From Gammaproteobacteria bacterium (GTDB taxonomy: Bacteria; Pseudomonadota; Gammaproteobacteria; JAURND01), in NCBI GenBank assembly GCA_029266595.1, contig JAQSWO010000001.1, positions 1 to 59,142 on the forward strand: a stretch of 59,142 nucleotides of DNA, read 5' to 3'. Each line of letters starts with the position of its first letter. The stretch's first letter is position 1. The notes under the pieces are model-generated. The model was not told the origin of the DNA and did no database searches. It worked only from the letters and a program-made list of their open reading frames with translations. Positions 4,883 through 58,804 of this stretch are shown here, in pieces. The position numbers and the translations under genes were made by a program.

Positions 4883-5890
4883 CTAATGTTCCCCAGGAAA
4901 TGCTATACCAAAATGCAGATACGCTTGTTGTGTGGCGATACGGCCTCTAGGCGTGCGTTGAATAAAACCTTGCTGAATTAAAAATGGTTCTAGCACATCT
5001 TCTATGGTGTCTGAAGGTTCGCCTATAGCAGCCGAAAGCGTATCTAAACCCACCGGCCCTCCTGCAAATTTCTCAATAATGCTCAGCAATAGCTTTCTGT
5101 CCATTAAATCAAACCCTTGTCTATCAATGTCTAACATATCTAATGCTTGCCCGGCGACAGCTTTTGTAATTTTTCCATCTGCTTTGACTTCTGCAAAATC
5201 ACGCACACGCCTCAGCAGGCGATTAACGATACGCGGCGTACCTCTAGATCGCTGAGCAATTTCACTTGCACCCTCCCTATCTATGCGAACATTCAGAATA
5301 TCGGCACTGCGCTGAACAATAGTGGTTAGATCATTCACGTCATAAAATTCTAACCTCTGTACAATACCAAACCTATCACGTAGCGGTGAGGTTAGGAGGC
5401 CTGCTCTCGTCGTAGCACCCACTAATGTAAAAGGCGGGAGATCGAGCTTGATCGACCTGGCGCTAGGGCCCTCACCTATCATGATGTCTAGCTGACAATC
5501 TTCCATGGCAGGATAAAGGATCTCCTCTATCATAGGGCTTAAACGATGGATTTCATCAATGAAAAGGATATCGTTATGTTGAAGATTAGTCAGTAATGCG
5601 GCGAGGTCTCCTGCCTTTTCAAGCACAGGTCCAGAAGTTTGTTTAAGGTTAACGCCCATTTCTGTCGCGATGATGCATGCCAGGGTCGTTTTGCCTAAAC
5701 CCGGAGGGCCGAAAATCAAAACGTGGTCCAGCGATTCAGCACGACCGCGCGCTGCACTGATAAAAATATCCATTTGTTCTCTGACGGCAGGTTGCCCTAC
5801 ATAATCCTTGAGAGATTTAGGGCGAATGGCACGATCAAGTTGGGTATCTTCGGTGAGATTATCTGGGGTGATGAGCCGGTCAGTGTGCAT
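4883..5890 (-). CDS. ruvB: Holliday junction branch migration helicase RuvB
   Basis: Walker [12 protein letters not shown], plus LFIDEIHRL, and collinear with RuvB over the full length. Confidence 0.97.
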
Positions 5891-5913
5891 TGATCAGATT
5901 CCTTATATTTTTT

Positions 5914-5963
5914 GTAACAGGCCAGTCTAGATAGAAACGGCCATCTTTTGGCGATCTTGAACG
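5914..5963 (+). mobile_element. family-A MITE, left part only
   Basis: Sequence gtaacaggccagtctagatagaaacggccatcttttggcgatcttgaacg lies in the ruvA-ruvB spacer. It is inverted relative to the copy at 4822-4870. Confidence 0.6.
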
Positions 5964-6069
5964 AAAAAAATTGTATTATCTCACCATTTCGCTCTTGTAA
6001 AGATGGAAAACTAGATTGTGCCTCGCTATTTCGTTACTCGCAACAACGGAATAAAGGAATACTACTAGA

Positions 6070-6678: not shown

Positions 6679-7211
6679 AAAAACGTTTCTCTCATTCTAG
6701 TAGTGGATGGCTGTGCCTGAAGTAATGCATTCATCTGCCGGCTATGCGCATGGCAAATCGCCACCGCTAGCGCATCAGCCGCATCTGTTGTGGGTGTCTT
6801 TGTCAAATTTAGCAATAACTTCACCATTTGCTGAACCTGGGCTTTATCTGCTGCACCGTAACCTACCACTGCTTGCTTGACCGCACGCGCTGCATATTCT
6901 GCAACCGTTAACCCCTCATTCGCCATTGCCACAATCGCCGCACCTCTCGCCTGACCTAGCTTTAACGCCGCATTGGCATCCTTGGCCATAAATACTTGTT
7001 CTATGGCAGCTTCGTCAGGTCGGTAAGTTTGAGTAAGCGTTTGAATGCTACTGAAGATTTGAGCCAGCCTTGTAGTGATGTTATCACCCTTGGTGTTCAC
7101 CGTGCCGCTGGTGACATAGGTATGTTTTTGCCCGTTGCTTCTGATAATGCCATAGCCAGTAATGCGCGAACCAGGGTCTATGCCTAGTATAGTGATGATA
7201 TTGCTGCTCAT
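6675..7211 (-). CDS. ruvC: crossover junction endodeoxyribonuclease RuvC
   Basis: ILGIDPGSRITGYGII...IEQVF...ADALAVAICHA. It overlaps the ruvA start by 4 nt. Confidence 0.95.
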   Translation of the reverse strand: MSSNIITILGIDPGSRITGYGIIRSNGQKHTYVTSGTVNTKGDNITTRLAQIFSSIQTLTQTYRPDEAAIEQVFMAKDANAALKLGQARGAAIVAMANEGLTVAEYAARAVKQAVVGYGAADKAQVQQMVKLLLNLTKTPTTDAADALAVAICHAHSRQMNALLQAQPSTTRMRETFL

Positions 7212-48074: not shown

Positions 48075-49423
48075 ACCAACCCCTCCACATATTTGATAAA
48101 AGTGTCTCCTCTATCTTCAAAATTCTTGAACATATCGAAACTGGCACATGCGGGGGCCAATACAACGGAATCTCCGAATGCTGCTGTCTGATGAGCGATC
48201 ATCACTGCCTCCTCAAGGCTATCTGCACGTTTAATGGGCACAACTCTAACCACAGCCGTTTCTATTAGATCGGCATCTTCACCAATCAAAACCAACTGCT
48301 TCACATGCTGAGCCATCACTTTTTTTAATGGTGAAAAATCTGCGCCTTTTCCTTGTCCACCAGCAATGACGATCAACTTTCTATCCCCATCATGACTTAA
48401 ACCTTCTATCGCTGCTTGTGCTGCACCCACGTTAGTGGCCTTAGAATCGTTATACCAATCGGCACCATTAATATTGGCAATCCATTGGCAGCGGTGCCTC
48501 AAACCTGGAAAAATGCGTAAAGTTTGCAGCATAGGTGTCAATGGTAAGCCCATCACTGTCCCTAATGCTAAAGCTGCCAAGGCATTGGCTACGTTTGGCT
48601 TACCTCTCATTTTCATTTCACTAACAGGCATTAAGCATTGCTCACCTTTTGCAAAATACGTGATATTTTGCTGGGTGATTAAACCAAAATCGCTTTCTGT
48701 TTCTGGAGCAGGAAATCCAAAACGCAAAGGTGCTTGCAATGATAATCCTTCCCAAGTTACGGGATCATCTCTATTGATCAGGGGATGCTGGCAATCATGA
48801 TAAATCCGCTGTTTGGCATGCAAATAATCTGCCATGCTGTCGTATCTATCCATATGGTCTTCACATAAATTTAAAATCACAGCACTGAGTGGGTGTAAAG
48901 AGAAAGTAGTTTCGAGCTGAAAACTAGAAAGCTCTAAGGCGTAGGTGTGTGGCGTAGGATACTGCAATAGATCAAGCACAGGTTCTCCTAAATTTCCGCC
49001 GATGCATACATCTATGTTCGCGGTTTTGCCCATCTCGCCCAACAAAGTGGTCACAGTACTTTTACCATTTGATCCAGTGATACCCACGATAGGCGCTTTG
49101 GCTAACAAAGCAAATAATTCTACATCGCCCACAACCGGAATACCGGCTGTAACGGCCTCGGCAATGACTGGCTCATGCAGCGATACACCTGGGCTGAGGA
49201 TAATGCGTGCGGCTTGTAGGCATAGCGTTCTATCAAAGCCCCCCAAAAAAAGTTGAACGGTGGGAAATTGTGCTTTGATGTCCTCCAAGCCTGGAGGACA
49301 AGTGCGACTGTCGGTGGCAGCAACATTAAACCCGTTTTCCAATAGATATCGGATACAAGATAGTCCCGTTTTGCCTAAACCAACAACAACTTGCGGGGGA
49401 GAGGTGTGATCGATAGAATTCAT
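48071..49423 (-). CDS. murD: UDP-N-acetylmuramoylalanine--D-glutamate ligase
   Basis: VVVGLGKTGLSC, GITGSNGKSTV, NDSKATNV. ATG at 49423 with an AAGGAAG RBS. The track extension to 49486 is rejected. Confidence 0.92.
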   Translation of the reverse strand: MNSIDHTSPPQVVVGLGKTGLSCIRYLLENGFNVAATDSRTCPPGLEDIKAQFPTVQLFLGGFDRTLCLQAARIILSPGVSLHEPVIAEAVTAGIPVVGDVELFALLAKAPIVGITGSNGKSTVTTLLGEMGKTANIDVCIGGNLGEPVLDLLQYPTPHTYALELSSFQLETTFSLHPLSAVILNLCEDHMDRYDSMADYLHAKQRIYHDCQHPLINRDDPVTWEGLSLQAPLRFGFPAPETESDFGLITQQNITYFAKGEQCLMPVSEMKMRGKPNVANALAALALGTVMGLPLTPMLQTLRIFPGLRHRCQWIANINGADWYNDSKATNVGAAQAAIEGLSHDGDRKLIVIAGGQGKGADFSPLKKVMAQHVKQLVLIGEDADLIETAVVRVVPIKRADSLEEAVMIAHQTAAFGDSVVLAPACASFDMFKNFEDRGDTFIKYVEGLV

Positions 49424-49497
49424 GCGAAGCTTCCTTCTTAATTGTTGTTCATTTTTTGTAGGGTCTGGTCTGTTTACATTGAGCACAGAAAATCGGC

Positions 49498-49566
49498 GTA
49501 ACAGGTCAGCTCCTAGATAGAAACGGCCATCTTTTGCTAATCTTGGCAGGGAGGGTGAGCTATTAC
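49498..49566 (+). mobile_element. family-A MITE, full-length
   Basis: gtaacaggtcagctcctagatagaaacggccatcttttgctaatcttggcagggagggtgagctattac is very close to the copy at 3556. Confidence 0.7.
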
Positions 49567-49651
49567 AAATTGGCAGATTGTGCTCAGTATAGGAAGCTGA
49601 ATAGACCTAAGATAATTCTCACCATAATTCGCCCAGCAAAGAGGAAAACAA

Positions 49652-50482
49652 ATGTTCGTATTTAGCAACCATCCGCAAAGCATCTGGCGTATTATGGCTG
49701 ATGCCTTAAACCTGTATCGCGATAGCATATCAAAAATATGGTACTGGCAAATTATTTTCATATTACCCACTATACCGTTGGCTATACTAAATGTACGCAT
49801 CAACCCTGATCCTTCACTACCATTCACTCCTTCCTATATCAGCTTTTTGATAGCTGCTGGTTTAATTATGCTATTTGTTTTATTGCTGGGACACTGTTTC
49901 GTCTATGCTCGCATGCATGCTATAGGGACAGGAGGAGATGCCCGCATCAAAACATGCCTACGTATTGCCGCTAAAAAAGCACCTATGGTATTTATGGCTA
50001 CAATGGCACTTGCCTTGGCAATATCTATCATCGTTGTGCCCACGCTTTCTCTGCTTTTAAAAACGAACAACGCAGCAATAGCCTTCTTTGGGATAACTAT
50101 CGCTTATTTCTTTACGTTAATCGTCGGTATTCTGGCTATCCTTTATCCGCTCTTTATTCTAATAAACAACGAGACAATTCTTGGCTCACTAAAAAGCAGT
50201 ATCACCCATATGTGGCAAAATTTTTGGCGCGCTTTGACACTGTTTATGTTTCTTTCGCTTATTTGTGCAATATTGATGTTGATAGTATTAGTACTACCAT
50301 CGAACCTCATTAATCTTGCGGAGTCTCCTGAGGCATTAGTAACAGGATTGCTTGGCCTACTGCTTGTTTATGCTTGCACGTATATTTTTATTCCACCTGT
50401 TTTTAATGCCATATTATTGACACTTTACCAGGACGTAAGGATCAGAAAAACTCATCCCTCATCTCCGGATATCATTACCTAA
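49652..50482 (+). CDS. multi-pass membrane protein of unknown function, possibly UPF0259/YciC-like
   Basis: 276 aa with about 6 hydrophobic helices. The N-terminal LYRDSISKIWYWQ and the overall architecture loosely recall E. coli YciC. The family call is weak. Confidence 0.55.
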   Translation: MFVFSNHPQSIWRIMADALNLYRDSISKIWYWQIIFILPTIPLAILNVRINPDPSLPFTPSYISFLIAAGLIMLFVLLLGHCFVYARMHAIGTGGDARIKTCLRIAAKKAPMVFMATMALALAISIIVVPTLSLLLKTNNAAIAFFGITIAYFFTLIVGILAILYPLFILINNETILGSLKSSITHMWQNFWRALTLFMFLSLICAILMLIVLVLPSNLINLAESPEALVTGLLGLLLVYACTYIFIPPVFNAILLTLYQDVRIRKTHPSSPDIIT

Positions 50483-50498
50483 CACGGGAGCGTTCACC

Positions 50499-51272
50499 TT
50501 GAACCTATCTTTTTACGATCGTGCAGCCCAAACCACTAATCCAACGGCAAAAGCGCTGTTGCAATTGATGGATACCAAAAAAACTAATTTGTGTCTCTCA
50601 GCCGATCTTTCTTGTGCTGGGGATGTGTTAGCATTAGCCGATAAACTGGGTCCCCAGATATGTGTTTTCAAAACACATGTGGATATCATTCAGGATTTCA
50701 CCCGGTCTTTTGCTTCTGAACTAACCAATCTCTCTGAAAAGCATAACTTCATCATTTTTGAGGATAGAAAATTTGCCGATATTGGTCACACTGTTAAGGA
50801 ACAATATGGCAAAGGGCTATATTCCATCGCAGATTGGGCGCCTATTACTAACGCACATATTTTGCCGGGGGAAGGAATTATCGATGGGTTAAAATCAATC
50901 GGACTTAACAAAGGAAATGGCTTACTACTCCTTGCGCAAATGAGCTCGAAAGGGAACCTATTCAATGAGGCTTATACTGCATCGGCCGTTGAAATGGCTA
51001 AAGCCCATCGAGATTTTGTTATAGGCTTTATCACGCAACATCGTTTAACCGAAGATCCTGCCTTTATCAGCTTCACCCCCGGGATCAGCAGTACCGATCA
51101 AGGCGACGCGCTTGGCCAGCAATATGTCACCCCTAGACAAGCGATTTTAGAAAACCATACTGACGTTATTATTGTGGGTCGTGGTATTTATGGCGCAACG
51201 GACCCTATTGCGGCAGCAGAGGCTTACCGTGCAGAAGCTTGGCAAGCTTATACCGATCGCCTTTGCCTATAA
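50499..51272 (+). CDS. pyrF: orotidine 5'-phosphate decarboxylase, eukaryotic URA3-like type
   Basis: KTNLCLSADL, CVFKTHVDII, IIFEDRKFADIGHTV, WAPITNAH, DFVIGFI, GDALGQQY, IIVGRGI. It is collinear end to end with yeast URA3 as I recall it. TTG start. Confidence 0.9.
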   Translation: MNLSFYDRAAQTTNPTAKALLQLMDTKKTNLCLSADLSCAGDVLALADKLGPQICVFKTHVDIIQDFTRSFASELTNLSEKHNFIIFEDRKFADIGHTVKEQYGKGLYSIADWAPITNAHILPGEGIIDGLKSIGLNKGNGLLLLAQMSSKGNLFNEAYTASAVEMAKAHRDFVIGFITQHRLTEDPAFISFTPGISSTDQGDALGQQYVTPRQAILENHTDVIIVGRGIYGATDPIAAAEAYRAEAWQAYTDRLCL

Positions 51273-51845
51273 ATGGTTGAGGCAACACCAAGAACGATGA
51301 AAATTATACTCCTCACACTAGCCATACTCTTCCTCAGTACCCAGTCGCTTTCTGCTGAAAAAAATGTCTATGCCAAAACACAGGCAGAAGCCGCCTTCAA
51401 GCTTTGGACAGAAACCTGCCTTTATCATCGAGGAAATTATCAGACACTGACCCTCTGGGCACGAGCTAACAATCTGCATCGTACAGATCCAAGCCTTTCT
51501 CAAGAAATCTTACAAGGAGAAAAAGGTGAAGTTTGGCAGCCATCTAAAAGATCAAGCAATCTACTGCTAATACTCAATGCAGATGACCAATGTGCAGTTT
51601 GGGCAACGCGTGCAGATGCAACAGACATCAATAATAGGTTTGAGCGAAGCATGGCAAACATGAAAGACCAGCCCAAGCTGGCGGGAGATAAAACTGTGAA
51701 GGGACAAGATGGAGAATATCGGCAAATCGCTTACTATGTGCGCACTAAAAGCAGCCCCCATGGCTGGGCTTTTATTGCCACCACCTCTGACTCAGATAAC
51801 GCGGCCATACATGTTAGATTAACTGTAAGTCCGGCAGGGAAGTAA
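51273..51845 (+). CDS. hypothetical secreted protein
   Basis: A signal-peptide-like MKIILLTLAILFLSTQSLSA begins at the second Met (51297). No recognised domain. Confidence 0.55.
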   Translation: MVEATPRTMKIILLTLAILFLSTQSLSAEKNVYAKTQAEAAFKLWTETCLYHRGNYQTLTLWARANNLHRTDPSLSQEILQGEKGEVWQPSKRSSNLLLILNADDQCAVWATRADATDINNRFERSMANMKDQPKLAGDKTVKGQDGEYRQIAYYVRTKSSPHGWAFIATTSDSDNAAIHVRLTVSPAGK

Positions 51846-51859
51846 AAATAAAAGAATGT

Positions 51860-53479
51860 TTAACGAGGTGCTTGCCTCAATAATGTCCTTTTCGTATTGT
51901 CAGCCTTATTCGGATAGTCTTCCCGGTAATGCCCACCCCTACTCTCACAACGCTGTAATGCTGAACGAACGATAAGCTCAGCAACCAGAATAATATTTCG
52001 CAATTCTAGTAAATCCTGCGTGACCACATGCTGCCAGTAATATTCTTCCACCATTTGTTGACGTAATAGGATCAATTGATGGAGATCTTTCAAACCCGCT
52101 TCTGTCCGGACGATTCCCGCATAAGACGTCATTTCTCCACGTAATCCCCGCCAATGTGCATTGATCTGGCTGGCGCGTCTTAAATCGGTCACGCCTCCTG
52201 AATCCCAACCTGCCGACATTTGCTCGTGACTCAGTGGCTGGTCCAGCCAAACCAAACAATCTTCTGCTGCGTTTGTCGCCATCACTCCCGCTTCTAACAA
52301 GGAATTACTGGCTAGGCGGTTAGCACCATGCAGTCCAGTGCAAGCCACCTCCCCAATCGCATATAATCTATTTGCCTGTGTTCTACCTGAAATATCAGTC
52401 AGCACTCCCCCACACATATAATGCGCTGCCGGAACAACGGGGATCATATCTTGCGACATATCTATTCCCAGGCGCATCAATGTATCATTAATCGTAGGGA
52501 AATGTTGTTTCAGAAAAGCTTTAGATTTATGTGTGATGTCCAAATAAACGTATTGGTCGTTGCTATGTTCAGTTTCGGTAAAAATCGCTCTTGCCACAAT
52601 ATCACGGGTGGCCAATTCCATTTGCTTAGGCGCATAACGCCTCATAAATCGCTCACCTGTCTCAGGCAGACGCAAGTAAGCACCTTCGCCTCTAATTGCC
52701 TCTGATATTAAGAAATTAGGATAATTTCGCTGATAAAGCAGAGTGGGATGAAACTGGTAGAACTCCATATTACTTATAGGCACGCCCGCACGATACGCCA
52801 TGGCAACGCCATCGCCAGTCGCAATGTCAGGGTTAGTGGTATATCTATAAGTCTTACCTGCACCGCCCGTCGCGAGCACAACGACGTTGCATAGAAAGGT
52901 ATCAATCAATCCACTTTTTGTGTCTAGCACATATACTCCAGAAATATCTTCGCTTGGTCTATCTTTCTGGCGTAAGAGTTTAACGGCCATATGCGATTCA
53001 AAGAGATAGATATTGGACTGTTGCTGGATATGAGGGATCAGTGCATCGATCATAGCGCGGCCTGTGTGGTCACCCGCATGAAAAATGCGTCGTTTGCTAT
53101 GACCGCCTTCTTTGGCTAAATCGGGGAGAGATTGATCGTTCTGATCAAATACAACACCTTGCTGTTGTAGGAAAGCTATGTAGCTCAGCGATTGAGATAA
53201 GATCGCTTTTGCCGCCAATGGACTAACTAGGCCATCACCCGCTGCAAGCGTATCAACCAAATGCTGCTGGACGGAGTCATCAACACCCGCTGCTGCCGCT
53301 ATACCGCCTTGTGCCCAATAGCTATTAGAATCAGAAAGTGCTTGTTTGCTAACTAAGGCAATGCGCGTGTGCGGTCTACGCGCGATTAATGTAAGGCAAA
53401 AGGTGAGGCCTGCTAAACCACTACCAATTACAACCACGTCAAAGGATTTTCTATCGCCACGTTGAGAGAGTGAATTCAT
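51860..53479 (-). CDS. nadB: L-aspartate oxidase
   Basis: FDVVVIGSGLAGL, AQGGIAA, HGANRLASNSLLE, RGGHYRED. Confidence 0.94.
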   Translation of the reverse strand: MNSLSQRGDRKSFDVVVIGSGLAGLTFCLTLIARRPHTRIALVSKQALSDSNSYWAQGGIAAAAGVDDSVQQHLVDTLAAGDGLVSPLAAKAILSQSLSYIAFLQQQGVVFDQNDQSLPDLAKEGGHSKRRIFHAGDHTGRAMIDALIPHIQQQSNIYLFESHMAVKLLRQKDRPSEDISGVYVLDTKSGLIDTFLCNVVVLATGGAGKTYRYTTNPDIATGDGVAMAYRAGVPISNMEFYQFHPTLLYQRNYPNFLISEAIRGEGAYLRLPETGERFMRRYAPKQMELATRDIVARAIFTETEHSNDQYVYLDITHKSKAFLKQHFPTINDTLMRLGIDMSQDMIPVVPAAHYMCGGVLTDISGRTQANRLYAIGEVACTGLHGANRLASNSLLEAGVMATNAAEDCLVWLDQPLSHEQMSAGWDSGGVTDLRRASQINAHWRGLRGEMTSYAGIVRTEAGLKDLHQLILLRQQMVEEYYWQHVVTQDLLELRNIILVAELIVRSALQRCESRGGHYREDYPNKADNTKRTLLRQAPR

Positions 53480-53730
53480 GTGATCTCGTCAAAAACATCT
53501 GCCAACGTCTCAGCACTCAATATTTTTTCAGCCCAATTAGATAAAGTATATGTATTTGCGCTCGATATGCGTTTTACATATATAGAGGGCAAATCGCCAA
53601 AGCGTATCTTAAGTAAGCGCTGCAACAATGCCGCTCCTTCTTCTTGCCTGCCCTCCTGCCTACCTTCCTGCCTACCTTCTTGCCTACCTTGCTGGCGGCC
53701 TTGCTCTGTAAAATGTTCTGCGAGAGTCAT
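53476..53730 (-). CDS. stand-alone duplicate of the Rpn C-terminal module (RpnS-like small protein, 84 aa)
   Basis: MTLAEHFTEQ(GRQQ)(GRQE)x4 EGAALLQRLLKIRFGDLPSIYVKRIS... is about 90% identical by eye to the last 86 aa or so of the upstream Rpn gene. It has its own AAGGAAAAA RBS. Its stop forms an ATGA overlap with the nadB start. Confidence 0.55.
   Translation of the reverse strand: MTLAEHFTEQGRQQGRQEGRQEGRQEGRQEEGAALLQRLLKIRFGDLPSIYVKRISSANTYTLSNWAEKILSAETLADVFDEIT
53643..53694 (-). repeat. 12-bp tandem repeat encoding GRQ[E/Q], 5 units
   Basis: The plus strand reads cttgcctgccctcctgcctaccttcctgcctaccttcttgcctaccttgctg. Confidence 0.85.
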
Positions 53731-53739
53731 GATTTTTCC

Positions 53740-54735
53740 TTAGTCAAAAACATCTGCCAATGCTTCAGCACTTAACATTTTTTCAGCCCAATTAGATAGA
53801 GTATGTGTATCTGCGCTCAATATGCGTTTTATATATATAGAGGGCAAATCGCCAAAGCGTATCTTAAGTAAGCGCTGCAACAATGCCGCTCCTTCTTCTT
53901 GCCTACCCTCCTGCCTACCTTCCTGCCTACCTTCCTGCCTACCTTCCTGCCTACCTTGCTGGCGGCCTTGCTCTGTAAAATGTTCTGCGAGGGTCATAAT
54001 ATTTTTCTCCAATTTTGGTGATAGCTGGTCATGAATGAGCGCTTGCAAAGATGCTGCGTTATGTATTTGACCAGCAAGAAAAAAGTAGTGAAATACTGTC
54101 CGCACATACTCAGCCCCACCTTCTCGTTCGATTTGCTTAATGAGATCCAAAACATTTTCTATGAACGGAATCAGATCTCGCTCAGAAATATGTTTTAAGG
54201 ATAGCTCCATCATACCTGACCAAATTTGCTGCTTCAAATCTTCGTCCGGTATCTGTGAGAGGTCCAGTAAGTCAAATGGCTCTAACAACGTTCTTTCAGC
54301 CAAGTTTTTATGTTCCCCAAATAAGTCAAATAAATTAGTGGAGTATGGATATTTTCGCTTACCATGATAAATCACCAACGTATAAACAAGGGGTAGTTCT
54401 TTGTGCTCTTTATAATGCTGGTCCATAATCTTGATTGAATACTGTAGTTTTCTAAATGGCATCAGGCGGTCAGCATTGCGTTGATGTTCTAGTAGCGTGT
54501 ACAAATACCCTAATTTCCCATTAGCCCATTTCAATGAGAAGAGCACATCAGAAAGATGTAGCTGCAAAGTTTCATCCACAAAAGTACCTTGGCACATCTT
54601 CAATGTTTTTAAATCAACTAATGCCTTAATATCCGTTGGCAAATGCGTTTCCATAAATTCTTTAGCAACCCGTGGATCACTTAAAGACCCGCGAAAGAAA
54701 CGATCATGTGGATTTGGCACGATATTTTTTGTCAT
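53740..54735 (-). CDS. Rpn family (YhgA-like, PD-(D/E)XK) recombination-promoting nuclease / putative transposase
   Basis: MTKNIVPNPHDRFFRGSLSDPRVAKEFMETHLP is the family N-terminal signature. Nuclease-core context DVLFSLKW...LYTLLEHQ. The ATG at 54735 forms an ATGA overlap with the nadC stop. Confidence 0.85.
   Translation of the reverse strand: MTKNIVPNPHDRFFRGSLSDPRVAKEFMETHLPTDIKALVDLKTLKMCQGTFVDETLQLHLSDVLFSLKWANGKLGYLYTLLEHQRNADRLMPFRKLQYSIKIMDQHYKEHKELPLVYTLVIYHGKRKYPYSTNLFDLFGEHKNLAERTLLEPFDLLDLSQIPDEDLKQQIWSGMMELSLKHISERDLIPFIENVLDLIKQIEREGGAEYVRTVFHYFFLAGQIHNAASLQALIHDQLSPKLEKNIMTLAEHFTEQGRQQGRQEGRQEGRQEGRQEGRQEEGAALLQRLLKIRFGDLPSIYIKRILSADTHTLSNWAEKMLSAEALADVFD
53898..53961 (-). 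repeat. 12-bp tandem repeat encoding GRQ[E/Q], 6 units
   Basis: The plus strand reads cttgcctaccctc(ctgcctaccttc)x3ctgcctaccttgctg, one unit longer than the copy at 53643. Confidence 0.85.
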
Positions 54736-55601
54736 ACAGATTCCTGCCAAGCCTTCATCGATAAATCAACATGGCCTGCGCCATAGGTGAGTTCCCCCAC
54801 CGACGCATAGTTCACACCTGTTTTTGCAATATCTACAATACGATCCAAGCGGATATTTCCTGACGCTTCCGTTTCGAAAATGCCTTGGCACGCTTTGACA
54901 CAAGCCGACATATCTTCTAAGGACATATTGTCTAGCAGGACGCGATGTACCTTCGCTTGTCCATGTTCTAATACGATGTGTAACTCTTCTTGTGATCGTA
55001 CCTCAACGATAACAGGCAAAGTATGTTGGTTTAAACAAGGAAGCTCGATAAGCGTTTTTTCCATGTCACCCAATAAATCAACGTGCGTATCTTTAATCAT
55101 TACCGCATCATATAGGCCCATACGATGATTCATCCCACCGCCACAGTGTACGGCATACTTTTCTAACAGACGAAATCCTGGCGTTGTTTTTCGCGTATCT
55201 AAGATTTTCAAATCATACATTGAGATTTTATCCACGTATTTTTTGGTTAATGTAGAGATAGCACATAAATGCCTTAAAAAATTTAAAGCTGTGCGCTCCC
55301 CCTTGAGTAACGTTTTCGCATCTGCTGTAACAGACAACAATCTTTCTCCAGGCATCAAAAGATCGCCATCAGAGCGATCCGATTCTATACGAGCATCTTC
55401 GGATAGCTTGGAAAATAAAAAGCGTGTCCACTCAATGCCACAGACGACAATAGGTTCATGGTGCTTTGAAATAATATGTGCCGTGCCCTGTATTTTATCC
55501 TTTGGAAATAATAAATCTGTGGTGATATCGCAGAAATTTTCACCCAAGTCCTCTTGTAGTGAAATATTTAATAATGTTTCGTTGAGTTCCGTGATTTTCA
55601 T
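54732..55601 (-). CDS. nadC: nicotinate-nucleotide diphosphorylase (quinolinate phosphoribosyltransferase)
   Basis: ERTALNFLRHLCAISTLT, ILDTRKTTPGFR, GGGMNHRMGLYDAVMIKDTH, and a C-terminal SVGELTY. Confidence 0.92.
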   Translation of the reverse strand: MKITELNETLLNISLQEDLGENFCDITTDLLFPKDKIQGTAHIISKHHEPIVVCGIEWTRFLFSKLSEDARIESDRSDGDLLMPGERLLSVTADAKTLLKGERTALNFLRHLCAISTLTKKYVDKISMYDLKILDTRKTTPGFRLLEKYAVHCGGGMNHRMGLYDAVMIKDTHVDLLGDMEKTLIELPCLNQHTLPVIVEVRSQEELHIVLEHGQAKVHRVLLDNMSLEDMSACVKACQGIFETEASGNIRLDRIVDIAKTGVNYASVGELTYGAGHVDLSMKAWQESV

Positions 55602-56899
55602 TTAGGGTCCTTATGAGAAAGTAGTGGTTTTTCAGAAGCACATTGATAGAAGAATAAAGCTAAAAACAGCACGTAGAAATTTCCTGTCACCGTTGTATAC
55701 AAAAATGCGTTATAACAAGCTCCCAGCATAAAGGAAAAGACGAGCGCCTGAGCAATAGGCCAGTCAGGAATACTTTTCAATGTCATCTTCCATTGCACGT
55801 AAAAAAAACACAAGAATAACGCTAACCCAATCAAGCCAAAATGTATCAGTGTTAATAGATATTCATTATGAGGATGCCCCCAACCTGGGATACCTGTGAT
55901 TTTTTCAAATGCCTTAGGAAAGCTTCCTGGCCCCATGCCTATGATAGGATGCTCTTTAATCATCATCATACTGGCCCGAATAAAATCAATCCTATATTCC
56001 ACAGAGAGCTGATAGGTATTTTTCACTTCAACAGAGGAGTGCTCTATCAGGTCTCCCACAGAAGTCTGAACTTTTTCTGATGACGCATAAAGCGATAGGC
56101 CCAAAAAAATTGATGCGAGCACACCAATCGTTATGCCTTTAAAAAGGGCTATATAGGCCTGTTTGGGATTATGCTGGAGCGATTGCCTTAAAAAAAATTG
56201 TACAAAAAAGAGGGTAACTAGGCACAGATACACCACCCAGCCTGTTCTCCCATCATTGATAAAGAATTCCTGCCAGGTGAATAATAGAAATAAAATGAAA
56301 TATAGCCATCGAAAGCGAACACCATAAATCGCGCGGTAAATAAATATATAAGCGGAAAAAGCCACAAAATAGCTGGTTTCAATATGGCTATGAAAAATCC
56401 ATGTCGCATCACTAGGATATCTTCCATATCCTATTCCTGCATATCGTGTTAGAAGTGAAAGACAAACAGTTAACGTCATCGCGACTAAAAAAGCTTGAAT
56501 GGCTGCATTACGCGCTCTAGAACCTAGGTGTTTGTCGTCGTTATCCATGCAAAGTGGGATGAGAAAAATAAAATAAAGTAGCTTGTCATATTTATGCAAG
56601 GCACGCAGTCTTTCACCCCAAGATGCCTCTCCCCATAAAATAGTCATAGCCGCAAATATAAAAATGAATAAGATGCTCCAGACAAGCGGATTTTTTTTAA
56701 CTTCGCCAAATTTTTTAAAAAACTGCCCTGATAAAACACTGCAGGCAAGGGCAGTAGACATAGAGAGATTCATGCCTGTGATGGAAAGTGGTGCAAAGAA
56801 ACCAGCGGCAGGAAGACAAAAAAGTCCGAATAAATAGAGCCCGTGCTGAAATTTGATCAGAACATTTTTTGTGGGAATGGAACATGTAGTTGCGGGCAT
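55598..56899 (-). CDS. O-antigen ligase family (Wzy_C domain) membrane protein
   Basis: 433 aa with about 10-12 TM helices. Periplasmic loop motif GMGPGSF...GHPHNEYLLTLIHFGLIGL. Confidence 0.7.
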   Translation of the reverse strand: MPATTCSIPTKNVLIKFQHGLYLFGLFCLPAAGFFAPLSITGMNLSMSTALACSVLSGQFFKKFGEVKKNPLVWSILFIFIFAAMTILWGEASWGERLRALHKYDKLLYFIFLIPLCMDNDDKHLGSRARNAAIQAFLVAMTLTVCLSLLTRYAGIGYGRYPSDATWIFHSHIETSYFVAFSAYIFIYRAIYGVRFRWLYFILFLLFTWQEFFINDGRTGWVVYLCLVTLFFVQFFLRQSLQHNPKQAYIALFKGITIGVLASIFLGLSLYASSEKVQTSVGDLIEHSSVEVKNTYQLSVEYRIDFIRASMMMIKEHPIIGMGPGSFPKAFEKITGIPGWGHPHNEYLLTLIHFGLIGLALFLCFFYVQWKMTLKSIPDWPIAQALVFSFMLGACYNAFLYTTVTGNFYVLFLALFFYQCASEKPLLSHKDPK

Positions 56900-56901
56900 G
56901 A

Positions 56902-57669
56902 TTATGCCCTACTTGCAGATAAAGCAAATTCAACATGTAATGGCGCATGATCAGACAATTTACTCCAAGGCATTTGATGAAGGCGATCGCATCCGACAAC
57001 ATCTACACCTCTAAAATACACACGGTCGACCTGCAACGTAGGGCGCCAAATAGGAAAAGACCTTGCGTGTTTGCCTGTAAGGACTTTGAATGCTTCTTGC
57101 AAACAGAGATGCGATTCCATATAACGCTCGGCGCGTTGAGTCCAGTCATTAAAATCGCCAGCAATAATTAAAGGTGCATACTCAGGGACATGAGATTGAA
57201 TGCGATCACAAAGCGTGGCGAGTTGTTTGTCACGCTCAATAGTGAATAATCCCAAGTGTACGCACACCACGTGTATTTCGGGCTGGCCTGGAATATGAAT
57301 AACCCCGTGCAACAAACTGCGACTGGCTTTTTTGTGAAAAGAAACATCAATATTTTCCCAAATAATAAAGGGAAATTTACTTAAGATGGCATTGCCATGA
57401 TGCCCATGATCATAAATTGCATTTTTACCATATACGAAATGTTCCCAAACACCGTTGGCGAGAAATTCAGCCTGATGCTCTTTTACCCAGTTTTTGTGTT
57501 TTTTTGCGCGTTTGACATGTTCGCCTTGTATCTCTTGTAGAAAAAGAATATGAGGATTAAGGTGATCAATGCTTTCCTTAATTTGATGTAAAACATAACG
57601 TATGCCGGTAGAGCTAAAGCCTTTATGTATGTTGTAAGTCAGTATGTTAAAAGTATTTTTTTTAGACAT
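56902..57669 (-). CDS. endonuclease/exonuclease/phosphatase (EEP) family protein, YbhP-like
   Basis: ILTYNIHKG, ILFLQEI, IAGDFND, LSDHAPL. It lies directly downstream of a ClsB-like gene, as in E. coli ybhO-ybhP. Confidence 0.8.
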   Translation of the reverse strand: MSKKNTFNILTYNIHKGFSSTGIRYVLHQIKESIDHLNPHILFLQEIQGEHVKRAKKHKNWVKEHQAEFLANGVWEHFVYGKNAIYDHGHHGNAILSKFPFIIWENIDVSFHKKASRSLLHGVIHIPGQPEIHVVCVHLGLFTIERDKQLATLCDRIQSHVPEYAPLIIAGDFNDWTQRAERYMESHLCLQEAFKVLTGKHARSFPIWRPTLQVDRVYFRGVDVVGCDRLHQMPWSKLSDHAPLHVEFALSASRA

Positions 57670-57688
57670 AATCGATTTCGCTTTTGTT

Positions 57689-58804
57689 CTAAATCCAATA
57701 TTTCAAATAAAGAAATAAACGACCTATGTTTTTCTTTATCCATCCACGTTTAAGCCAGCTATCCAGGCTGATTTCCTTCGATAGAGCAACATCTTTTAAG
57801 AATTGCTCCTCTATCTTTAATTTAGTCTCTTTCTGCTGAATATTCACATCTACTTCTAAGTCATGTAACAAGCTACGATGATTTAAGTTGCTTGAACCTA
57901 CCATAACCCAATCATCTAATTGCAGAGACTTCGCATGCAGCATACTAGGTGTATACTCCAAAATTTTAACGCCAGCTTCGAGCAAGGATGCATAAAAGGC
58001 CGAAGATGCCCATGGCATAATCAGCAAATCAGCCTTTTCTGGCAAAAGAATTCTGACATCTACGCCCATACGCGCTCGGTCTTTAAGAATGTGTAACAAA
58101 AAATTATCTGGCACAAAATAAGAATTGACGATCCAGATGCGTTTTTGACACCGGGCCATATGCTGCAGTAATTGCTTATAGAGTAGCCGCCGCTTTCGTC
58201 GAGTATTATTAAGCCTAATAGGGTTGTGCAAGTTGATTTTCCGGGCTCTTTTTTTGACCGTCTCATGGGACCAACACGCATTAAATGCAGTGGTTAATTC
58301 GCGCAGGTCAATGTCTTCTAGCCGAACAATAGTATCTCGCCAACCTTTCCCTTCCTGAGAAGCAGACAAATGACATATGCTGATGTTCGCACTACCGACA
58401 TAGCCAATCTTTTGATCGATAACACAAACTTTTCGATGATTTCGCTTATTGGCATTATAAAAAAAGTAAAAGGCCTTGAGTAGGAAGTGTATGCGTATGA
58501 TGCCATATCTTAATTGCCAGAATCGCCATAGAAATGGATGATAAACACGCACTTCTACCCCCCCTGCCCTCAAATTGTCAAAGAATGGTATTTTTTGCCA
58601 GCCCGTACCCGCGCCATCTACCAACAGGCGCACGTGTACACCGCGCTTGGCAGCCGCTATGAGATGCTGCGACAAGCGCTCTCCTAATGCGTCCGCGGCA
58701 AAAATATAGGTTTCAATATCTATACATTTTTCTGCTTGATCAATATCCTCAAAAAGAGCATTAAAATAAGCATCACCGCTGAAAAATATGTCTTCTTTAG
58801 GCAT
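57689..58804 (-). CDS. phospholipase D family protein, ClsB-like cardiolipin synthase
   Basis: Two HKD motifs: HRKVCVIDQKIGYVGSANI and HAKSLQLDDWVMVGSSNLNHRS. No N-terminal TM helices. Confidence 0.8.
   Translation of the reverse strand: MPKEDIFFSGDAYFNALFEDIDQAEKCIDIETYIFAADALGERLSQHLIAAAKRGVHVRLLVDGAGTGWQKIPFFDNLRAGGVEVRVYHPFLWRFWQLRYGIIRIHFLLKAFYFFYNANKRNHRKVCVIDQKIGYVGSANISICHLSASQEGKGWRDTIVRLEDIDLRELTTAFNACWSHETVKKRARKINLHNPIRLNNTRRKRRLLYKQLLQHMARCQKRIWIVNSYFVPDNFLLHILKDRARMGVDVRILLPEKADLLIMPWASSAFYASLLEAGVKILEYTPSMLHAKSLQLDDWVMVGSSNLNHRSLLHDLEVDVNIQQKETKLKIEEQFLKDVALSKEISLDSWLKRGWIKKNIGRLFLYLKYWI

Follow-up and report, generated by a model that had tools for sequence, protein, structure and literature searches.

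The window, i.e. the whole 59,142-nt stretch of DNA analysed here, comes from an uncultured gammaproteobacterium. The best relative of the SucA protein encoded on the contig is 71% identical, and ‘Gammaproteobacteria bacterium’ MAGs supply the one organism name among the matches listed. Between its nadC and nadB genes, and on the same strand as both, lie a long open reading frame of the YhgA/Rpn type (rpnL), a putative gene initiated within the 3′ part of that frame (rpnS) and, immediately downstream, a small separate gene that repeats the same part (rpnSs). The features are collected in Table 1. The start of rpnL was set at ATG 54735 because the N-termini of homologues and the gene call on an independent contig (see below) agree on it.

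Table 1. Features of the rpn locus and its flanking genes, in window coordinates.
Feature	Position	Strand	Remarks
nadC (quinolinate phosphoribosyltransferase), upstream flank	54732-55601	minus	TGA stop overlaps rpnL ATG (ATGA 54735-54732)
rpnL, full-length Rpn (YhgA-like) nuclease ORF	53740-54735	minus	331 aa from ATG; stop TAA 53742-53740
PD-(D/E)XK / Transposase_31 nuclease domain of rpnL	54124-54714	minus	residues 8-204
GGAG Shine-Dalgarno-like element	54007-54010	minus	9 nt spacer to internal ATG 53997-53995
rpnS, predicted, intragenic	53740-53997	minus	85 aa from ATG 53997-53995; frame and stop shared with rpnL
Six 12-nt repeats, (GRQQ)(GRQE)5, in rpnL/rpnS	53896-53967	minus	
AAGGA Shine-Dalgarno of rpnSs	53737-53741	minus	overlaps rpnL TAA stop; 6 nt before ATG 53730
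rpnSs, separately encoded RpnS copy, DUF4351	53476-53730	minus	84 aa; starts at Met equivalent to internal Met
Five 12-nt repeats, (GRQQ)(GRQE)4, in rpnSs	53641-53700	minus	
nadB (L-aspartate oxidase), downstream flank	51860-53479	minus	ATG overlaps rpnSs TGA stop (ATGA 53479-53476)

A first-pass annotation, made from the letters alone, had placed the long ORF in the YhgA/Rpn family, and the profile searches bear this out. RpnL matches PF04754 with E=2.5e-58 (197.4 bits, cutoff 21) and scores above the cutoff of TIGR01784 (81.3 bits, cutoff 52.1), while residues 275-329 of its tail match DUF4351 (33.8 bits against a gathering cutoff of 25). This DUF4351 tail stands in place of the HTH-like tail found in the nearest relatives of the N-terminal domain. 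The RpnA and PRK09956 equivalog models score below their cutoffs; RpnL is thus not an orthologue of any specific E. coli Rpn. Its residues D11, D63, E83, Q85, R95 and D164 align with D11, D63, E82, Q84, R94 and D165 of RpnA, whose activity is lost in the D11A, D63A, E82A and Q84K mutants (PMC5350276). RpnL is a predicted PD-(D/E)XK nuclease of the Rpn family, in which every residue required for RpnA activity is kept. Two further searches were uninformative: the PDB sequence search with RpnL returned only low-complexity matches to ribosomal protein S10, and PADLOC v2 matched neither RpnL nor RpnSs, its 2023 library appearing to hold no Rpn model. The weak DrmC matches that PADLOC gave for a neighbouring PLD protein reflect generic PLD-domain similarity.

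The internal in-frame Met noted in the first pass, with a GGAG about 10 nt upstream, is Met247 of RpnL, and the spacer is 9 nt. Met247 is invariant in the homologue alignment and pairs with M244 of RpnA, a proven internal start whose mutation abolishes RpnA_S (PMC10400941). Both rpnA and rpnE of E. coli have an (A)GGAG element 6-10 nt before the Met of an MT[LI]AE motif, as do the metagenomic loci L001, L004, L008, L009, L011 and L019. Judged from these alignments, Met247 and its Shine-Dalgarno element are homologous to the validated RpnA/RpnE internal start, and rpnS would be translated from it. The small form carries 4-aa GRQQ/GRQE units, six in rpnL/rpnS (TRF: 53895-53961, period 12, 5.6 copies, 92% matches), which begin at its residue 11 and thus within the range of 8-20 residues after the internal Met that is published for the RpnS repeats (Zhong et al. 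2023, PMC10400941).

The downstream ORF starts at the equivalent Met and has its own ribosome-binding site, both as first noted, and its ATG sits 9 nt past the rpnL stop. It repeats the last 85 codons of rpnL in tandem, differing from them at 13 of the 243 aligned nucleotides (94.7% identity, ungapped) and by one 12-nt indel. With gaps counted, BLAST gives 90.1% over 263 nt, so the earlier estimate by eye, ~90% over ~255 bp, was fair and slightly low. At the protein level, 75 of the 81 aligned residues are equal (92.6%), and RpnSs ends in three extra codons (EIT). The 255-nt tandem unit has a TRF score of 834, which is far beyond chance. There are five repeat units in rpnSs (TRF: 53640-53694, period 12, 4.6 copies) against six in the rpnL copy, which agrees with the earlier count. 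RpnSs matches PF14261 (DUF4351) with E=1.4e-10 (41.5 bits, gathering cutoff 25), and its AF2 model (pLDDT 86) places the repeats on one long helix (residues 3-44), with three short helices besides. A Foldseek search of the PDB with this model gave no significant match, and the RpnA_S crystal structure 7TH0, a small helical bundle with a long first helix, was absent from the results. In a search of 5.8 billion proteins, the closest sequence to RpnSs among the best 120 of 1,410 matches is 59% identical, as against the 94.7% nucleotide identity to the adjacent tail, which indicates that rpnSs arose locally from its own rpnL. By sequence comparison, then, rpnSs is a duplicated RpnS module derived from the adjacent rpnL tail.

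Two other readings are barely credible: an artefact of assembly as the source of the duplication, and an IS-type transposase, duplicated at its ends, in place of a toxin-antitoxin. Repeats can confuse assemblers, and two contigs of an unrelated metagenome (L009 and L010) break at just such a repeat. The copies here, however, are 5% diverged and carry an in-frame indel. The same structure is moreover found on an independent JGI metagenome contig (L005, 10,382 bp), which is 99.98% identical to window positions 48181-58562, has neither of its 2 mismatches inside the rpn locus and includes rpnSs among its gene calls as an 84-aa gene. An artefact is therefore unlikely, and we rejected it. A transposase is suggested by names, i.e. 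Transposase_31 in Pfam and ‘ISNCY family transposase’ for the best NCBIfam equivalog-type match, but both equivalog matches lie far under cutoff (165 and 156 bits vs. 583) and the Rpn subfamily model passes. In addition, published analysis found rpn genes to be without terminal inverted repeats or target-site duplications, and the homology of RpnL to its nearest relative begins exactly at the ATG and stops within the repeat tract, ends that are not IS-like. The transposase reading was rejected as well.

In the closest relatives of the nadB gene, nadC lies directly upstream with no rpn in between; the rpn cassette is an insertion between these two genes. It appears to be co-transcribed with both of them: an ATGA overlap marks each junction, and no terminator-like site was found inside the cassette. 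The promoter scan returned fewer sigma-70-like sites than shuffled sequences did, and the minus-strand sites at 54237-54209 and 53760-53732 are both weak; hence, we claim no internal promoter. The locus lies outside any defence island, and its neighbours are housekeeping genes, a setting that counts against the toxin-antitoxin reading given below.

The first-pass annotation held the arrangement to be undescribed. The 2023 Rpn work that it referred to, Zhong et al. 2023 (PMC10400941), itself describes downstream RpnS genes, namely: ypaA (= rpnESs) after rpnE, and rpnCSs (rpnC_Ss) after rpnC, the latter present in some E. coli strains. According to the same paper, the rpnSs genes have DUF4351 annotation in some species, stem from independent duplications of the tail upstream of them and are readily lost, and the YpaA protein was detected in E. 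coli by SPA tag. A commentary by Koonin (PMC10400984) likewise mentions separately encoded RpnS copies, while a literature search for Rpn follow-ups after 2023 found nothing relevant. Thus, the gene-within-a-gene reading stood as regards the Rpn nuclease, the internal start, the repeats and the duplicated RpnS module, but not as regards novelty, and the locus is a real but ordinary example of a published arrangement.

The likeness to E. coli rpnE-ypaA is close. In both cases, the full-length rpn gene contains a Shine-Dalgarno element and Met (MTIAE in rpnE) within its frame and is followed by a same-strand tandem copy of its tail, which begins at the duplicated SD/ATG past a short spacer (12 nt in E. 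coli, 9 nt here), and exactly one 12-nt / 4-aa repeat separates the two copies. In the alignment of the K-12 pair it is YpaA that has one repeat more than RpnE_S, whereas the downstream copy here has one fewer. Furthermore, the tail is HTH-like in rpnE-ypaA and of the DUF4351 type here, the annotation has K-12 RpnE as inactive whereas the catalytic set of RpnL is complete, and the E. coli pair has no translational fusion to a flanking operon. RefSeq annotates K-12 ypaA as a pseudogene.

The second precedent, rpnC-rpnC_Ss, also joins an active-type Rpn to a small downstream homologue from its own tail, with unequal repeat numbers in S and Ss (7 vs. 4 and 6 vs. 3 in the aligned pairs). In addition, rpnC lies in a cofactor-biosynthesis cluster (panD / rpnC / panC-panB) comparable to nadC / rpn / nadB. 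The two differ in that the spacer is 68 nt long instead of 9 nt, that RpnC_Ss is extended at its N-terminus and diverged in its repeat sequence, and that rpnC is on the strand opposite to the pan genes, whereas the cassette here is co-directional with the nad genes; the copies here are also much more alike than the rpnC tail and rpnC_Ss. RpnA and RpnP2 share with RpnL the N-terminal PD-(D/E)XK domain and its essential residues, the homologous internal Met with its Shine-Dalgarno element, and a first helix of S that carries 4-aa repeats. The profile of DUF4351 small proteins aligns with that of RpnA_S-type tails (hhalign probability 98.7%, partly driven by the low-complexity repeat), but the Foldseek search gave no confirmation that the DUF4351 tail has the 7TH0 fold. 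K-12 RpnA, on the other hand, has neither a downstream copy nor repeats.

Of the changes between the rpnL tail and rpnSs, 7 are synonymous and 6 non-synonymous (dN/dS 0.21, dS ~0.15). Neutrality of both copies is rejected (P=0.01), while an average omega of 0.5, i.e. one copy neutral and one constrained, is not (P=0.13). The latter result would suit a downstream gene that is a functionless by-product of tandem duplication, intact for want of time, with only the intragenic RpnS of any consequence. Tandem duplications are frequent at rpn loci, and the ready loss of rpnSs genes and the pseudogene status of K-12 ypaA fit the same idea. So does the count of downstream copies in the other Rpn loci examined, 0/10 (6 from a viral-contig scan plus L001-L004), by which the copy is dispensable for the family. 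We nevertheless consider a by-product unlikely. With a dS of this size the copy is not very young, and yet its ORF is intact, its Shine-Dalgarno element is good and at optimal spacing, its sole indel is in frame and the overall dN/dS is low; the E. coli counterpart YpaA is, as mentioned, made as a protein. The rpnSs stop, moreover, has been recruited to overlap the start of nadB (ATGA), so that translation of rpnSs probably matters, at least for nadB.

The difference of five repeats against six, which the first pass had pointed out, has precedent in the E. coli pairs above. Its consequence is less plain. In E. coli RpnC, a mismatch of one additional repeat abolished the antitoxin activity of RpnC_S (PMC10400941), and by analogy the 5-repeat RpnSs may fail to neutralise the 6-repeat RpnL. 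RpnSs could then be, as the first pass suggested, a specificity-shifted antitoxin which has lost its pairing with the resident RpnL. Its target might be a phage trigger, for which it would be a decoy, or another Rpn encoded elsewhere in the genome, which it would neutralise; or it might pair with S into inactive heterodimers and so tune the level of free S. The unequal repeat numbers of the examined E. coli S/Ss pairs are in keeping with such a shift; they also suggest that a mismatch is tolerated, or even typical. We regard the shift as distinctly unlikely, given that there is no second rpn gene within the 59-kb contig, that beyond the repeat tract the rpnL tail and RpnSs differ at only 6 residues, and that no experimental role for any Ss is reported in the Rpn literature searched.

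Taken together, these results lead us to read the locus, with a probability of about 80%, as an RpnLS gene-within-a-gene toxin-antitoxin that has a second antitoxin gene, rpnSs, tandemly duplicated downstream of it. As an RpnLS locus it is presumably antiphage. By what is known of the family, RpnL would be a toxic DNA endonuclease, and RpnS, made from the internal start, would bind RpnL via its repeat-containing first helix and block it. rpnSs would also be translated, probably by re-initiation 9 nt past the common rpnL/rpnS stop, and RpnSs would add to the supply of S-type protein. In the nadC-nadB setting, a second antitoxin gene whose Shine-Dalgarno element is stronger could help to keep the S:L ratio high, a role to which we give even odds because the one-repeat mismatch may weaken the binding of RpnSs to RpnL.

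It is very unlikely that the 6-repeat rpnL/rpnS and the 5-repeat rpnSs go beyond simple redundancy and form a working two-state cassette. If they did, specificity could change with no toxic L/S mismatch on the way, and the non-cognate RpnSs would meanwhile serve as a decoy or buffer. The same reading adds that the seamless coupling to nadC and nadB could tie the toxin:antitoxin ratio to the expression of NAD biosynthesis genes.

Under the toxin-antitoxin reading with a duplicated antitoxin gene, the locus offers a clean rpnLS plus rpnSs example outside Enterobacteria. The host is an uncultured gammaproteobacterium, the tail is of the DUF4351 type and the nuclease is apparently active. The locus lends support to the idea that local tandem duplication has given rise to downstream antitoxin copies time and again, and that the repeat number of such copies drifts from the parental one. 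Small proteins of this kind are abundant in the protein search: all of the best 120 of 1,410 matches have ~80-140 aa, (GRQE)n repeats and DUF4351 at the C-terminus. Among the metagenomic contigs, L009/L010 carry a DUF4351-type L-tail and Ss in tandem, L008 is split into two genes that overlap at an ATGA, and L012 has a stand-alone DUF4351 gene with no rpn nearby, i.e. a true orphan. The position of an rpn gene inside an operon is a modest curiosity, which could serve as a natural test of a housekeeping promoter driving an Rpn cassette.

The first-pass annotation had correctly identified the rpn locus as an Rpn gene-within-gene system with an extragenic antitoxin-like copy: the long ORF, rpnL, matches Pfam and NCBIfam models, an internal Met is preceded by a Shine-Dalgarno (SD) sequence, and a copy of the gene's tail follows as a second ORF, rpnSs. 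As also proposed there, rpnL belongs with the Rpn/YhgA models. Residues 8-204 match Transposase_31/YhgA-like PF04754 (E=2.5e-58) and residues 275-329 match DUF4351 (PF14261), while the NCBIfam Rpn subfamily model TIGR01784 gives 81.3 bits, above its cutoff of 52.1. The equivalog models of specific E. coli Rpn proteins (NCBIfam) score rpnL far under their cutoffs. On these profile scores, rpnL is a member of the Rpn family but no orthologue of RpnA-E.

Features of the rpn locus and its flanking genes
Feature	Coordinates	Strand	Description	Basis
nadC	54732-55601	-	5' flank of cassette	gene neighbourhood
rpnL	ATG 54735 to TAA 53742-53740	-	long ORF, 331 aa	ORF reading
GGAG	54010-54007	-	before internal Met, 9-nt spacer	DNA reading
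Internal start	ATG 53997-53995	-	in-frame Met, residue 247 of rpnL	ORF reading
AAGGA	53741-53737	-	overlaps rpnL stop codon, 6 nt before rpnSs ATG	DNA reading
rpnSs	53730-53476	-	second ORF, 84 aa, begins 9 nt past rpnL stop	ORF reading
nadB	51860-53479	-	3' flank of cassette	gene neighbourhood

The rpnL product was placed in an alignment that also holds RpnA and RpnE of E. coli and five relatives from metagenomes. Its D11, D63, E83, Q85, R95 and D164 align with RpnA D11, D63, E82, Q84, R94 and D165, respectively. The RpnA substitutions D11A, D63A, E82A and Q84K lead to the loss of all phenotypes (Kingston et al., PMC5350276). Because residues aligned to the essential D11, D63, E82 and Q84 are present, the RpnL nuclease is predicted to be catalytically competent.

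The Met247 column is invariant in the same alignment and corresponds to RpnA M244, whose mutation along with the RBS abolishes RpnA_S, the intragenic small form (PMC10400941). At the loci whose DNA was inspected, namely E. coli rpnA and rpnE as well as L001, L004, L008, L009, L011 and L019 from other contigs, (A)GGAG is found 6-10 nt before the Met of MT[LI]AE. In addition, the predicted small form has its 4-aa repeats from residue 11 onwards, within the published window for repeat onset in RpnS, residues 8-20 (Zhong et al. 2023, PMC10400941). Translation from Met247 is predicted, with good support from homology. Two distant Rpn homologues carry the internal-start motif in a unit that is itself repeated in tandem: L002 has four 57-nt units (6730-6900), whose first residues are MTLADRLREEGR in three and MNLADRLREEGR in the fourth, and L003 has two MTLA(Q/K)... 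units (6733-6850). Such units would mean several nested internal starts within one gene.

rpnSs opens with the same MTLAEHFTEQGRQ... sequence as the internal-start form. It differs from the rpnL tail at 13 of 243 nt (94.7% identity, with the single 12-nt indel left out; 90.1% over 263 nt by BLAST, gaps counted), has five GRQx units versus six in rpnL, and is longer by three C-terminal codons, EIT. TRF recovers matching 12-nt arrays in both copies as well as a 255-nt tandem unit (score 834). An exact-protein look-up retrieved an independent JGI metagenome contig (L005, 10,382 bp) that matches window 48181-58562 at 99.98% identity; its two mismatches lie outside the rpn locus, and both rpnL and rpnSs are called as genes. 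Since L005 independently carries the locus without a mismatch there, the duplication is real and a one-off assembly artefact is unlikely. The tandem 3'-end copy with its own start and RBS, and five versus six repeats, is therefore confirmed.

By the Nei-Gojobori method, the two copies show 7 synonymous and 6 non-synonymous differences (dS 0.149, dN 0.032, dN/dS 0.21). Neutral evolution of both the rpnL tail and rpnSs is rejected (P=0.01); a constrained rpnL tail with a neutral rpnSs (average omega 0.5) is not (P=0.13). The intact ORF, the in-frame position of the sole indel, the good SD and a stop codon within the ATGA overlap with nadB are only suggestive of a functional rpnSs. The AF2 model of its product (48-sequence alignment, pLDDT 86) has a long helix (residues 3-44) that bears the repeats and, after it, three short helices, and is compatible with the long first helix and compact bundle described for RpnA_S. 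Foldseek of this model against the PDB gave no significant match; 7TH0 (RpnA_S) is present in the PDB sequence set. When the profile of DUF4351 small proteins was compared with that of RpnA_S-type (HTH-like) tails, the probability was 98.7% (E=3e-16, 54 columns), a score inflated by the common low-complexity repeat.

The arrangement had been taken to be undescribed, which is wrong: Zhong et al. 2023 (PMC10400941) report ypaA as a second copy 3' of rpnE (rpnESs), with its product seen by SPA tagging, and rpnCSs 3' of rpnC in some strains. According to the same study, downstream Ss copies arose independently, each from its own upstream gene, and can be lost via deletion or fusion; a commentary by Koonin makes the same point on separate Ss copies (PMC10400984). 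Our own check of the K-12 locus shows that the duplication begins at a common SD/ATG (AGGAGAGATTAATG) past a 12-nt spacer and that YpaA has exactly one 12-nt/4-aa repeat more than RpnE_S. In two E. coli strains with rpnCSs, the S versus Ss repeats number 7 versus 4 and 6 versus 3. Thus, the architecture, short spacer, separate RBS and repeat-number mismatch of the window locus are all precedented, in published or directly verifiable form, and the role of Ss copies is a family-wide question not peculiar to this locus. ypaA (5817-6002 of the K-12 locus, L006) is a RefSeq pseudogene, yet its product was detected by Zhong et al., and the rpnC_Ss genes of L100 and L101 are annotated 'hypothetical protein'; under-annotation of Ss genes is thus systematic.

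With the 84-aa rpnSs protein as query, a search returned 1,410 matches, the best 120 of which are all small (about 80-140 aa), nearly all annotated PF14261, and at most 59% identical. A best outside identity of only 59% shows that the window copy arose in place from its own rpnL. L009/L010 have this tandem layout too, likewise with a DUF4351 tail: there, an Rpn tail ending ...AEVFEQA* is followed by 16 nt including GAAGGAG and then by a slightly diverged MTLAERFDQ...EVFEHA* gene. In L008 (2288-4306) Rpn is split between a Transposase_31 gene and a DUF4351 gene, the stop of the first and the start of the second overlapping in ATGA; this conventional two-gene layout is followed by another, apparently disrupted rpn copy whose tail differs in repeat number. 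A DUF4351 gene lies within an rpn array in L011, and L012 has a true orphan. Ten further Rpn loci, namely L001-L004 plus six from IMG/VR, lack a downstream tail copy. Given these varied tandem, split and orphan loci versus ten loci without a copy, the arrangement is recurrent, though not the rule.

The closest relative of the window rpn gene, in L001 (1215-2198; 76% aa identity), shares DNA similarity that begins exactly at the ATG, runs at about 0.65-0.85 up to about 53960, and is lost within the 12-nt repeat tract. The tails past this point are of the DUF4351 type in the window and HTH-like in L001. All six closest N-domain relatives whose sequences were inspected (P0001-P0006, 55-76% identity) have HTH-like tails, and DUF4351-like tails are a minority among the best 120 Rpn homologues. 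The difference is in line with a C-terminus known to be modular in Rpn proteins. GRQE-type repeats are present in both tail classes, and the sequence comparison points to the GRQE-coding repeat tract as the tail-exchange junction.

The cassette is joined to its flanking genes by 4-nt ATGA stop/start overlaps (nadC/rpnL at 54735-54732, rpnSs/nadB at 53479-53476), and no terminator-like site was found inside it. In the two closest nadB relatives with upstream sequence retained, nadC lies directly 5' of nadB without rpn: L013 (nadB 68% identity) has the two genes 175 nt apart and has also retained wzy, and in L015 (60%) the spacer is 2 nt. Because nadC adjoins nadB in these relatives, the cassette must have inserted into a cluster of the form wzy-nadC-nadB. 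E. coli rpnC, between panD and panC, is a loose precedent, although it is on the opposite strand, unlike the window cassette. The cassette is probably co-transcribed with the nad genes and translationally coupled in the order nadC, rpnL, rpnSs, nadB; if a housekeeping promoter drives the toxin gene, a second well-translated antitoxin gene could help to keep S in excess. We regard it as improbable that the locus is a functional two-state recombination cassette or that it provides a non-cognate decoy, perhaps with a link to expression of the NAD operon. It is unusual for a toxin-antitoxin cassette to be stitched translationally into an operon for NAD biosynthesis.

The genes around the cassette have housekeeping roles (wzy-like ligase, PLD, pyrF, murD and ftsW), and it is not in a defence island. 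Two ORFs on the plus strand, 51273-51845 (190 aa) and 49652-50482 (276 aa), have no Pfam or PADLOC match; they flank pyrF and are both also called on the independent L005. Finally, the 371-aa protein encoded at 57689-58804 (minus strand) has two PLD domains and weak PADLOC matches to DISARM DrmC (best E=1.8e-13), most likely generic PLD-domain similarity of a housekeeping phospholipase or cardiolipin-synthase-like gene.
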